The notes under the pieces were generated by a model. The model was not told where the DNA came from and made no database searches. It saw nothing but the letters and a program-made list of their open reading frames with translations. 39,128 bases of DNA from Cloacimonetes bacterium UBA5456 (GTDB lineage: Bacteria > Cloacimonadota > Cloacimonadia > Cloacimonadales > Cloacimonadaceae), in assembly GCA_002427325.1 (NCBI GenBank), contig DIQS01000033.1, forward strand, positions 37,396 to 76,523, given 5' to 3'. Within the stretch, counting starts at the first letter, position 1. The number at the start of each line of letters is the position of its first letter. Positions 1 to 38,523 of the stretch are shown piece after piece. The translations under genes and the position numbers were made by a program.

Positions 1-32
1 ATCATGACCAGAACCCAGTAAGGAAGCTATGG
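1..32 (+). repeat. Copy A of a ~106-nt palindromic intergenic repeat family; only the 3' part is present because the window edge cuts it
   Basis: nt 1-27 (atcatgaccagaacccagtaaggaagc) are identical to 14999-15025. The first 26 nt are also identical to 38493-38518. The copy lies 3' of the minus-strand CDS ending at 136. Confidence 0.8.
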
Positions 33-14910: not shown

Positions 14911-14924
14911 CAAACACGGCTAAA

Positions 14925-15030
14925 CCACTGCTTCCCTATTGATTACTGCTTAGCGTGCGCTCATGATATGGTCATGCCCATGACCACATCATGACCATAT
15001 CATGACCAGAACCCAGTAAGGAAGCAGTGG
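14925..15030 (+). repeat. Copy B (complete) of the ~106-nt palindromic intergenic repeat
   Basis: The outer stem is CCACTGCTTCC (14925-14935) with GGAAGCAGTGG (15020-15030). The inner perfect 16-bp stem is TCATGATATGGTCATG (14961-14976) with CATGACCATATCATGA (14990-15005). Three tandem 11-mers follow: CATGACCACAT, CATGACCATAT, CATGACCAGAA (14979-15011). The copy sits between the convergent priA and MBL genes. Confidence 0.85.
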
Positions 15031-15093
15031 GAAAAAGCCAAAACATGCGATATGGAAAGGCAGAAAAATGAGGAGAAAATTGACGAAAAAAAC

Positions 15094-16838: not shown

Positions 16839-18704
16839 TCACTTTATAATGCTTAGTTTTTTAATGTCATATCTTCCGCCATCCTCTTCATATCTAATGA
16901 AATAGATGCCCGAGGAAGGGAATATTCTGCTGGATAGTTCCAGCGTGGATGACCTTTGTTTTTCTTCAAATATCTTCTGACCGCGCAGGTTATAGACAGT
17001 CACTCTGCCACCTTCTCCGTTGAGTTTGCAATTGAAATCCTGTTGACCGTAACCCGGATTGGGATAAATCTCAATGGCGACTTGCGGGGTCTCTTCTTCA
17101 TGCTCCGGCCCTTCGGACTCCATGCTAAAGTCTTTATAGCCAACATGATGGATCTTTCCGGTGCCACCTTGTTGCAGCCAATAATAGATGCGATAGTCGG
17201 AGGAATATCCATCATCGAGCCCAACTGTGCTGAAACTATAGCTTTTGCCGGCAGATTGGCCTTTGAGTATCTTGTGATTAATGGTGTCGGCACGGGCTAT
17301 CCATCTGCTAAGGATGTAATAATTTCCATCATCCTCTCTGGATAGATTAAATAATCCCACATGAAGCTTGGAATTGAGGACGGGGTTAGCGGCTTGTGTA
17401 TCAAATAGTTGAGTGTTATCGTTATCAAATCTTATCGTCACTTCTTTGCGTGCCGCGCTTTCCGAATCTACCAGATTGAGGGTGGACCTGCTGATGAAGC
17501 TGCGATATTTCGACAATCCATTTGTGGCATTTTGAAAGTTTTGTGAATATGCCGTATTGAGCCCTGTTATCAGCTTCTCGCCGACAATCATCGTGCGCGG
17601 TAAAGAATTGAATCGATAGTCGTTAAAGCGTTGTTGCGATGGGATATTGCCCGGTTCATCCGTGAGCAGCGGATAATATTCTATGGGATGCATTTTCTCT
17701 GATAAAATAGACTCTTGATAATATCTTATTGTGTTGGCATCCTGGCTGCGAACGAAGTTTTCCACCAAATATATGGGATATTCGTCCTGATAAACATTTA
17801 AATTAACGGTCTTTTTATTGTTTACAAGCAGCGTATCGTTCTCAACAAGAGAAGAGCTAATCTTCGCTTCTATACGAAGTTGAGTGGGTTCGCTCGGCAA
17901 AAGAAATGTTGCACTCGTCAGCTCGATATCGTGTTGGGTCTGTCCGAACAAATTTTGGGGAACGCTGAATTCAAGATTTTCATAACCGGTTTCGCCCGGG
18001 CGGCTGAAAATCAGGTTCAGCTTCGTGTCATAAGCCATCTGTTGGCTATGGTTATATACCTTTAAGACGGGATAAACTGGGTTGCCCGGAAGAATATCAC
18101 CTGCGAAGCTGATCTGCTCCAATTCCAAGCCGTCTTGCGGGAACACATAGTCTCCCAAAAGGCCAAAAAGCAGCTCCGCCGCAAATCCGTTTTGCTCAAA
18201 ATTTGTTAAGGTCTGGATGTCACCATATTCCTGCATGTAATAGCTGTGACTGCCTCCGCCCGCACTTGCAGCAACGAATTTATTGAGGATATTTGTTTGA
18301 TAATCAACGAAGAGCCACGCTGCTTCCGCACTATATTGAGTGTTAAAATGATGGTCGATGATGTGATCGTCAACAGTGATTGTCGCAAACTCTATGAGTG
18401 TGCCGGGCTCGCCGGCATTATCGCTATATAGCTGAATCATAGCATCATTGCCAATGCTCGGGAAATATAATCTTGCGCCGCGAGTGGTGAAATAGACCTC
18501 TGATACGGAGGAATATTTACTGCGAAAATCAAAGCGAACCGCCCAAGTTGAGGGGCCAAAAAAGTTGTAGTCTTCTGTGCCGCTGTGATGACGGAAATGA
18601 TATTCACGTTCGGGCGGAAAGACCTCCTCACCGCTGGAAGGATGATAGCCTATGCCAAATAAAAGGCCAAAAAGGAAGAAGGCTATGGGCAATATGCGCT
18701 TCAT
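16839..18704 (-). CDS. Secreted protein of unknown function with a type-A T9SS C-terminal sorting domain
   Basis: 621 aa. Signal peptide MKRILPIAFFLFGLLFGIG. The last ~80 aa (VAIEIYPNPGYG...VTVYNLRGQKIF...SGIYFIRYEE...KKLSIIK) match the Por/T9SS CTD pattern. The start overlaps the ribF stop by 4 nt. Confidence 0.8.
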   Translation of the reverse strand: MKRILPIAFFLFGLLFGIGYHPSSGEEVFPPEREYHFRHHSGTEDYNFFGPSTWAVRFDFRSKYSSVSEVYFTTRGARLYFPSIGNDAMIQLYSDNAGEPGTLIEFATITVDDHIIDHHFNTQYSAEAAWLFVDYQTNILNKFVAASAGGGSHSYYMQEYGDIQTLTNFEQNGFAAELLFGLLGDYVFPQDGLELEQISFAGDILPGNPVYPVLKVYNHSQQMAYDTKLNLIFSRPGETGYENLEFSVPQNLFGQTQHDIELTSATFLLPSEPTQLRIEAKISSSLVENDTLLVNNKKTVNLNVYQDEYPIYLVENFVRSQDANTIRYYQESILSEKMHPIEYYPLLTDEPGNIPSQQRFNDYRFNSLPRTMIVGEKLITGLNTAYSQNFQNATNGLSKYRSFISRSTLNLVDSESAARKEVTIRFDNDNTQLFDTQAANPVLNSKLHVGLFNLSREDDGNYYILSRWIARADTINHKILKGQSAGKSYSFSTVGLDDGYSSDYRIYYWLQQGGTGKIHHVGYKDFSMESEGPEHEEETPQVAIEIYPNPGYGQQDFNCKLNGEGGRVTVYNLRGQKIFEEKQRSSTLELSSRIFPSSGIYFIRYEEDGGRYDIKKLSIIK

Positions 18705-27322: not shown

Positions 27323-27428
27323 CCATTGCTTCCTTAGAGGATACAGCTTAGCTTGCGCTTATGATGTGCTCATGCCTATGACCATATCATGACCAGATCA
27401 TGACCAGAAACCTCTAAGGAAGAGGCTG
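27323..27428 (+). repeat. Copy C (complete, most diverged) of the palindromic intergenic repeat
   Basis: It has the same layout as copy B. The outer stem is CTTCCTTAGAGG (27329-27340) with CCTCTAAGGAAG (27411-27422), 12 perfect bp. The 11-mers are TATGACCATAT, CATGACCAGAT, CATGACCAGAA (27377-27409). Confidence 0.85.
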
Positions 27429-38418: not shown

Positions 38419-38523
38419 CCATCTCTTACCTATAGGGTTCAGCTTATCATTTGCTTATGATATGCTCATGCTCATGACCACATCATGACCATATCATGAC
38501 CAGAACCCAGTAAGGAAGACCTG
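38419..38523 (+). repeat. Copy D (complete) of the palindromic intergenic repeat
   Basis: It is collinear with copies B and C. The 3' half, 38476-38518, is identical to copy B. GGGTTC (38435-38440) pairs with GAACCC (38503-38508). The copy sits between convergent genes. Confidence 0.85.

Follow-up and report, generated by a model that had tools for sequence, protein, structure and literature searches.

The palindromic repeat described here is, on balance, probably a lineage-specific, non-autonomous dispersed element of the REPIN/ERIC/MITE-like kind that acts at the DNA level, with a core that is a putative protein platform. A dispersed REP/MITE-like family with heptamers recognized by a protein had already been proposed in a preliminary description of this DNA, and it is the part of that description which is best supported. 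We propose that the unit measures ~180 nt and begins with a short leader on the left, continues with an imperfect palindrome of 106 nt and closes with a polar tail in which degenerate 11-nt 'GnGAAAA' units follow one another. It would have dispersed between genes in the ancestor of a narrow group of Cloacimonadota, and its copies would now be fixed and vertically inherited. The functional heart would be the central ~50 bp, where ATGACCA units, two of them inverted and three direct, recur once per 11-bp helical turn and may offer a sequence-specific DNA-binding protein several sites on one helix face, next to phased A-tract DNA that is predicted to be intrinsically curved. Possible candidates for the bound protein are a host factor and the enzyme by which the element was mobilized.

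Copies in the window and the extent of the family

The window, that is, the whole stretch of DNA that was analyzed, comprises 39,128 nt of contig DIQS01000033.1 from Cloacimonetes bacterium UBA5456 (GCA_002427325.1). It carries four copies of the repeat, all on the plus strand and exactly where they had been reported (1–32, 14925–15030, 27323–27428 and 38419–38523). An nhmmer model run over the whole window returned these four copies and no degenerate ones, and the copy density is about one per 10–12 kb. The copies and the layout of copy B are as follows.

1–32, plus strand: copy A, cut by the window edge; the last ATCATGACC unit and the 3' arm (…AGTAAGGAAGCTATGG), nhmmer model positions 78–112
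14911–15093, plus strand: copy B, whole inserted unit, 183 nt from the PriA stop to the MBL-hydrolase stop (5–6 nt in relatives)
14925–15030, plus strand: copy B, 106-nt imperfect palindrome, the stretch flagged in the preliminary description
14925–14935, plus strand: copy B, 5' outer arm CCACTGCTTCC; family-wide conservation limited to CTTCC
14959–14976, minus strand: copy B, left core, two inverted units; minus-strand reading CATGACC ATAT CATGAGC
14977–14979, no strand: copy B, palindrome center, model columns 56–58; hypervariable among copies and among orthologues
14979–15007, plus strand: copy B, right core, CATGACC three times, direct, at 11-nt spacing
15008–15030, plus strand: copy B, 3' arm AGAACCCAGTAAGGAAGCAGTGG
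15031–15093, plus strand: copy B, tail of degenerate ~11-nt 'GnGAAAA' units (phased A-tracts), probably part of the inserted unit
27323–27428, plus strand: copy C, with rimP (upstream region) on one side and the 3' end of the DUF4147/MOFRL gene on the other; direct units at 27377–27405
38419–38523, plus strand: copy D, between the convergent HTH_25 and Na/Pi-cotransporter-PhoU genes; direct units at 38473–38501

The four CATGACC heptamers reported for copy B are present, three of them direct (starting at 14979, 14990 and 15001) and one inverted (14970–14976). The two stems reported for this copy were also recovered: in the perfect 16-bp inner hairpin, 14961–14976 (TCATGATATGGTCATG) is the exact reverse complement of 14990–15005, and in the 11-bp outer stem, CCACTGCTTCC (14925–14935) pairs perfectly with GGAAGCAGTGG (15020–15030). 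Because the reverse strand of each copy matches the nhmmer model at about half the score, the whole element is an imperfect palindrome of ~106 nt. The two-unit pattern CATGACCANAWCATGACC had 7 matches in the window compared with 0.00 expected in shuffles, and 10 of the 11 occurrences of CATGACC in the window fell inside copies, leaving 1 outside compared with about 4.5 expected.

All four window copies are intergenic, and copies B and D lie between convergent genes (PriA and an MBL hydrolase in the case of B), as had been observed; copy C is flanked by two minus-strand genes. The neighbors are housekeeping genes (PriA, MBL-fold hydrolase, rimP-nusA-infB, DUF4147/MOFRL, dapB, DAP epimerase and Na/Pi-PhoU). 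No integrase or transposase was found among the genes flanking the window copies, and a search for tRNA and tmRNA fragments found none. Tandem integrated elements or att sites were rejected as an explanation, given housekeeping flanks in which integrases are absent. An integron attC or cassette array was likewise rejected, given housekeeping intervals of 11–15 kb, no integrase and mixed orientation elsewhere. The tetranucleotide CATG occurred 164 times in the window compared with 195 ± 12 expected, and avoidance of CATG through restriction or methylation was rejected as an explanation because this under-representation is only mild.

The repeat is not confined to this locus, since matches were found in a Cloacimonadota MAG and in several digester and landfill metagenomes. 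In a scan of one genome per species (185,579 species), the three-unit pattern had 17 exact matches, which were spread over different contigs of a single genome, the Candidatus Cloacimonadota MAG DUNQ01. Among metagenome contigs, the two-unit pattern was found in at least 118 stretches from a handful of digester or landfill samples. From ~1.05 Mb of fetched DNA, nhmmer recovered 134 full-length copies, which correspond to 118 distinct sequences and 107 distinct genomic sites; because most loci were fetched by an exact pattern within the right-hand units, degenerate copies are under-sampled in this set. The window is 99–100% identical to contig Ga0172382_10004024. A sister species, with 81% identity to the window, is represented by DUNQ01 and the 2.27-Mb FZPS01000191.1, which share 98% identity.

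Searches of viral contigs, phage records and plasmids recovered no copy, and a phage, plasmid or viral origin was rejected because these collections held no matches. The element had been taken for a novel one; consistent with this, an Rfam search of the whole window gave no match at gathering thresholds, and a permissive search (E ≤ 10) gave only generic miRNA-hairpin noise. In the literature, we found no paper describing such a repeat and no repeat families described for Cloacimonadota. The repeat family is real and, as far as checked, uncatalogued.

The repeat is also a frequent assembly break point in MAGs, in which contigs or scaffold pieces start or stop inside or beside copies (for example, the fetched loci L028, L035, L046, L049, L066 and L133, and pieces of FZPS01000031.1 and FZPS01000191.1). 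Gene families that recur near copies are T9SS-sorting-domain proteins, ABC ATPases and kinases; the sole recurrent transposase there belongs to the IS3-family IS that has inserted at the elements. Genes with a Por_Secre_tail/FlgD_ig domain (the type IX C-terminal sorting domain) near repeats numbered 52 ORFs in 40 of the first 135 loci, and the window contains a type IX sorting-domain gene at 16839–18704 on the minus strand.

Intergenic placement, which had been noted for the window copies, holds family-wide at 106 of the 107 sites, and the remaining site overlaps an ORF of at least 90 aa. The fixed orientation that had been noted together with it is a property of the four window copies only, as orientation is random over the 107 sites and an opposed pair of copies occurs on one 48-kb contig. 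Given this randomness, chance (1 in 8) is the best explanation for the shared orientation of the copies in the window. In co-directional gaps, 28 copies were antisense and 19 sense (P = 0.24). A bias toward gene 3' ends seemed real among the first 20 copies, in 16 of which a gene 3' end faced the right side; however, it vanished at 107 sites, where the ratio was 53:43 and not significant. A link between orientation and the replication strand through GC skew was also rejected (31 of 72 loci positive).

Among the 87 sites for which both neighbors were called, 18 were convergent, 47 tandem and 22 divergent. These classes are roughly those of any intergenic DNA, so that there is no preference for gene 3' ends; the observation that every copy lies 3' of a gene was correct for the window copies and does not extend to the family. 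The element is dispersed, restricted to intergenic DNA and independent of the direction of transcription.

The inserted unit and its conserved core

For an empty-site comparison, we examined the contigs that encode homologues of the MBL hydrolase. Relatives at 77% and 68% MBL protein identity have their PriA and MBL-hydrolase stop codons 5–6 nt apart, and the C-termini of the two proteins are collinear, with the same end residues in the relatives and the window. The filled site, element included, measures 183 nt in the window and 194 nt in the sister species. The comparison of empty and filled sites indicates that ~180 nt, and not 106 nt, arrived at this site; in the window, the inserted length is composed of 14 nt, the palindrome and a 63-nt tail. 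The ~106 nt first given for the element thus stands as the length of the palindrome, whereas the unit itself is longer, with a phased A-tract tail of ~40–60 nt after the 3' arm. No copy was found in 42 kb sampled from element-free relatives.

We profiled the flanks of 94 sites on the right side and found A peaks at +7 to +10, +17 to +21, +28 to +31 and +40 to +43, with G before each. The peaks represent degenerate 11-nt GnGAAAA units, which remain periodic out to +43, and on the left flank a TAAC(C)C signal of lesser strength lies at –21 and –10. DNA with phased A-tracts is expected to be curved. Because of the length of the empty site, and because the tail continues the 11-nt phase of the core, we take the tail to be part of the mobile unit, with which it probably travels; it may, in part, reflect target preference or later growth instead of element cargo. 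A SINE-like retro-insertion, hinted at by the A-rich tail, was rejected, as there is no flanking duplication and the tail has an 11-nt period and is not poly-A.

In L005, L007, L008, L013, L017, L018 and L024 (DUNQ01/FZPS01), an extra conserved box, …AGGTGATCTACC TGACTAACACACCC with a variable spacer between, starts 45 nt before the CTTCC arm and could mark either a subfamily of greater length or a composite that includes a second repeat. The contig of a relative whose MBL protein is 72% identical breaks off 138 nt past the MBL stop (L139:8341–8478); this stretch contains GnGAAAA-type phased A-tracts and CTTCCCTTAATGACCCCTTAATGAACCCC and may be a diverged cousin of the repeat, and no other occurrence of such a stretch was found in the fetched loci.

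The architecture of the palindrome is rigid, with the same length in 110 of 118 copies and exactly three ATGACC on the right in 112 of 118. Columns 42–55 (the left core, ATGATrTGsTCATG) and 59–65 (the first right unit, ATGACCA), which lay outside the metagenome search pattern, are 96–100% conserved except for columns 47 and 50; right units 2 and 3 are within the search pattern, and the invariance of columns 67–90 is by construction. Arm columns 18–24 and 30–36 mostly show 36–75% consensus, and the arms retain only CTTCC…TA and TA…GGAAG. The phased heptamers are the most conserved part of the element, which would fit the recognition by a sequence-specific protein that had been suggested for them. 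Read from the center outward, the right half contains three good units and the left half CATGAGC, CATAAGC and a degenerate GCTAAGC, an asymmetry common to all copies.

We compared copies within genomes and between species. Paralogues within a genome differ by 11–13% in the core, where differences cluster at five or six positions (47, 50, 56–58 and 66). Among the orthologues, two pairs are the most diverged. Between L016 and L080, with a flank identity of about 79%, the arms changed at 14 of 38 and 9 of 22 positions, and between window copy B and L010, which are syntenic with 81% nucleotide identity, at 9 of 38 and 7 of 22 positions. Core columns outside the search pattern showed 0 and 3 changes in these pairs, all at family-variable sites, and the adjacent spacer was unalignable in both; cross-species orthologous copies are present at several sites. 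Arm divergence is about equal in orthologues (24–41%) and paralogues within a genome (29–33%), which indicates that the burst was about as old as the species split and that the copies are now sedentary.

From the aligned copies, we infer selection on the core. However, the palindrome center (columns 56–58) is hypervariable, with 10 of 15 cells differing. Furthermore, L102 and L074 have identical arms and immediate flanks (0 of 60 arm differences) and five clustered central differences, and almost every combination of the variable sites occurs as a haplotype. The central differences suggest short-patch events at the tip of the palindrome (for instance, repair associated with a cruciform or hairpin, hairpin-tip mutagenesis or ectopic conversion), and short-patch gene conversion could contribute to the uniformity of the core alongside or instead of purifying selection.

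The variable model columns 47, 50, 56–58, 66 and 77 correspond to window positions 14968, 14971, 14977–14979, 14987 and 14998. At the center and in the unit spacers, bases switch between two states much more rapidly than the arms change, and an anti-correlation links columns 66 and 77 (C,T 69; T,C 27; C,C 5).

We computed the folding energy of copy B, which was –50 kcal/mol (z –8) on the plus strand and –55 kcal/mol (z –7) on the minus strand. The arms had been said to diverge and yet to keep pairing; this is true of the four window copies and fails across the family of 107 sites. Complementarity of the arms within a copy was no better than that between copies (z –1.7 to +1.0 for three segments under the wobble rules of either strand), which implies that the arms do not covary. 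In register 1, 79.6% of cells were paired compared with 80.3% in shuffled data, and 499 of 500 shuffles were at least as high (109 gap-free copies); in register 2, which has an alternative center, the fractions were 81.3% and 81.5%. Covariation in the outer arms and the two central registers is therefore absent save in one column pair, 47–77, and column 47 is anti-correlated with pairing to column 66. These two observations are compatible with subfamily structure or conversion.

The core is conserved in sequence without conservation of its pairing. Together with the indifference to transcription, the 7 + 4 = 11-bp unit, the arrangement of two inverted and three direct units and the predicted curved flank, this fits a platform in double-stranded DNA, and the layout suggests that a protein would bind the core. 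Our searches of the loci yielded no binding protein or mobilizing enzyme and no parent IS with matching ends.

The same observations would also be explained if the repeat were a host-domesticated architectural or regulatory site, with about 200 genome-wide platforms for a chromosomal protein and a mobility that is only historical. Such a protein might be nucleoid-associated or of the ParR/omega/PhoB type, which recognizes repeats with a spacing of one helical turn, and might serve nucleoid organization, supercoil management or transcriptional insulation. Orthologues at about 80% identity retain the core next to a decayed spacer, the 11-bp phase runs through core and tail, and placement is indifferent to transcription direction. 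At sites C and D, each inspected in about 20 assemblies, every strain carries the copy, with no empty site and no presence–absence polymorphism. However, no cognate protein was identified, CATGACC is not enriched outside the elements (the 1 occurrence in the window mentioned above), and gene conversion can mimic selection. In addition, relatives with 68–77% protein identity lack the element at PriA/MBL and in the 42 kb sampled, which makes any function dispensable. We regard domestication as the strongest of the alternatives and as unlikely.

Insertions at the repeat and its mode of movement

At five independent sites, an IS3-family IS adjoins the right end of the repeat, and its orientation is the same at each. 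It is ~1.64 kb long and consists of an OrfA (MNSKKPYVRYSEAFKR…), a frameshift at an A-run and an rve OrfB; its left inverted repeat is TGACCCGTCC… / TGACCCGTCCTGAAAATGG. The junction reads GGAAGnnnnGGr/TGACCC and, in L030, AGTAAG/TGACCC (the slash marks the boundary).

IS3-family IS sites: L023 (minus strand, start ~8298 in reverse-complement coordinates), L030:104, L036:6245 (= L131), L085:14400 and L087

These results suggest that the repeat is a preferred target of the IS. Two members of the same family, IS1397 and ISKpn1, insert in palindromic REP/PU units (PMC1525189), and by this analogy the recurrent insertion supports a REP-like status of the repeat.

In L131 (reverse complement), the sequence restarts after the right IS junction (~3343) at AAGGAAGGAGTGGAAAA, which is a second copy of the right end of the repeat; the left junction is of the other type, and L131 may be a recombinant between IS copies in different elements. 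Near the left end of the IS (L023 and L131, IS positions ~27–41), CATTACCACATGAT matches the CATGACCACATCAT unit of the repeat at 12 of 14 positions, for which a rough count gives about 0.04 expected by chance. Because the right end of the IS has no counterpart, this match is probably a coincidence.

A bolder picture would combine ~200 selected nucleoprotein platforms, with five one-face sites and curved A-tracts, an undescribed TSD-less transposition with a polar tail and a clade-specific chromosome-organizing protein that guides the IS3-family element to safe sites; we consider this combination rather improbable.

No target-site duplications, which might have been expected for a MITE-like element, were present at the flanks: there was no excess of matching k-mers at fixed offsets within ±16 nt, nor were longer shared substrings enriched at variable offsets up to +150 nt. 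Among 816 ORFs in about 1 Mb of loci, none was a recurrent transposase with the arms at its borders. A RAYT/TnpA(IS200/IS605)-type partner, envisaged in the preliminary description, was also not found in the 1.24 Mb around the 107 sites. Among the six-frame ORFs of this DNA, neither a motif regex nor phmmer (E ≤ 10) matched a Y1/RAYT-like ORF; the phmmer result is a weak negative, since its IS608 TnpA and E. coli RayT query sequences were approximate, and a single-copy gene may lie elsewhere in the genome.

These searches bear directly on a REPIN-type element, which a single-copy RAYT (Y1/HUH) would have moved by acting on a single-stranded hairpin without target duplication. The repeat resembles REPINs in being a long imperfect hairpin of two inverted halves, extragenic and of high copy number, and also in lacking TSDs, in being sedentary and vertically inherited, and in serving as an IS target. 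However, besides the missing Y1/RAYT-like ORF, its consensus has no GTAG/CGTC-type 5' tetranucleotide, the conserved feet being CTTCC/GGAAG and the best-conserved part the AT-rich center. Conservation thus peaks at the center and not in terminal REP 25-mers, pairing is not maintained, and the polar A-tract tail is unlike REPINs, which together make this origin improbable.

We find a cut-and-paste MITE still harder to defend. Such an element would be an internally deleted DDE IS reduced to two adjoining ends of ~53 bp, each with subterminal repeats for the binding of transposase. Terminal inverted repeats, imperfect and ~25 nt long, are indeed present (CTTCCyTAyTGG… / …CCArTAAGGAAG), each half has multiple subterminal repeats, as do the ends of Mu, Tn7 and IS21, and both the 106-nt size and the insertion relative to an empty site are in keeping with it. 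However, no TSD was found at any offset, the inserted unit is asymmetric with a one-sided tail, and no IS with similar ends occurs in the loci, where the inverted repeats (TGACCCGTCC…) of the sole recurrent IS, of the IS3 family, are unrelated. The element accordingly lacks the features that define a classical MITE (TSD and parent IS) and, so far, those that define a REPIN (RAYT and GTAG tag).

The preliminary description had also allowed for structured RNAs or bidirectional terminators. In the flank profiles, the stem is followed by an A-tract on the plus strand and is without a T-run on the minus strand, so that neither strand has a U-tract after the stem, and a scan for intrinsic terminators at copy B found none. 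Since 22 of the 87 classifiable sites (25%) lie between divergent genes, a terminator or other 3'-end element is not supported, and neither is a structured-RNA family, in which compensatory arm pairing should have exceeded the level of shuffled controls and for which Rfam has no family. Although both strands fold very stably (z –7 to –8), column pair 47–77 covaries and 16 of the first 20 copies had a gene 3' end facing the right side, an orientation bias that was lost at 107 sites (53:43 and, for antisense and sense, 28:19, neither significant), a structured RNA transcribed from the element, be it a small RNA, a 3'-UTR stabilizer or a bidirectional terminator, is the most improbable of the readings considered.

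Significance and relation to known systems

Cloacimonadota are abundant uncultured syntrophs of anaerobic digesters. The repeat accounts for recurrent contig breaks in their assemblies and offers a genus-level marker. It provides a clean case of a dispersed palindrome whose core sequence, unlike its pairing, has been retained through the separation of two species, which points to a DNA–protein interaction and not to RNA structure, and its five phased units are a ready-made probe for a cognate protein. The IS3-family insertions at one junction extend the targeting of REP-like repeats by IS elements to a new phylum. The family is otherwise one more lineage-specific small repeat, in a class that has many precedents.

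Arrays of repeats one helical turn apart are bound by winged-helix or ribbon-helix-helix proteins, as seen for PhoB at pho boxes (7-bp repeat + 4-bp spacer) and ParR at the 11-bp iterons of R1 parC. The present repeat, with a 7-bp unit and a 4-bp AT-rich spacer, shares the 11-bp period with these arrays as a mechanistic analogy only; its layout of three direct and two inverted units and its predicted curved flank belong to the same likeness. However, pho box and parC arrays are confined to one locus or a few, next to their cognate genes, whereas the repeat occupies about 100–200 loci with no linked gene.

With the REP/BIME and REPIN-RAYT systems of Enterobacteria and Pseudomonas, the repeat shares an extragenic location, high copy number, hairpin formation, absence of TSDs, long-lived vertical inheritance and use as an IS target. 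However, REPINs have conserved ends and a variable middle, whereas the 106-nt unit described here has an invariant centre and degenerate arms; no RAYT was found in 1.24 Mb, a GTAG-type tag is absent and pairing is not maintained. The unit also contains an internal array of 7-bp units phased at 11 bp, and its A-tract tail is polar. Bacterial MITEs (Correia/NEMIS, RUP and MITEAba12) are similar in size, terminal inverted repeats, intergenic dispersal and non-autonomy, but TSDs and a parent IS with matching ends were looked for here and not found.

ERIC, the enterobacterial repetitive intergenic consensus, is an imperfect palindrome of 127 bp, and to our knowledge its mover has not been identified. 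Like ERIC/IRU and RU-type elements, the repeat is an imperfect palindrome of ~100–130 bp that is strictly intergenic, occurs in either orientation and is more conserved in sequence than the surrounding intergenic DNA; the likeness proposed is one of kind only, and taxon and motif content differ. These small mobile sequences have been treated as a class (PMC2759123, PMC2229807). The repeat differs from ERIC in belonging to a different phylum and in carrying a phased heptamer array and an A-tract tail, neither of which ERIC has, and ERIC is reported in transcribed regions.
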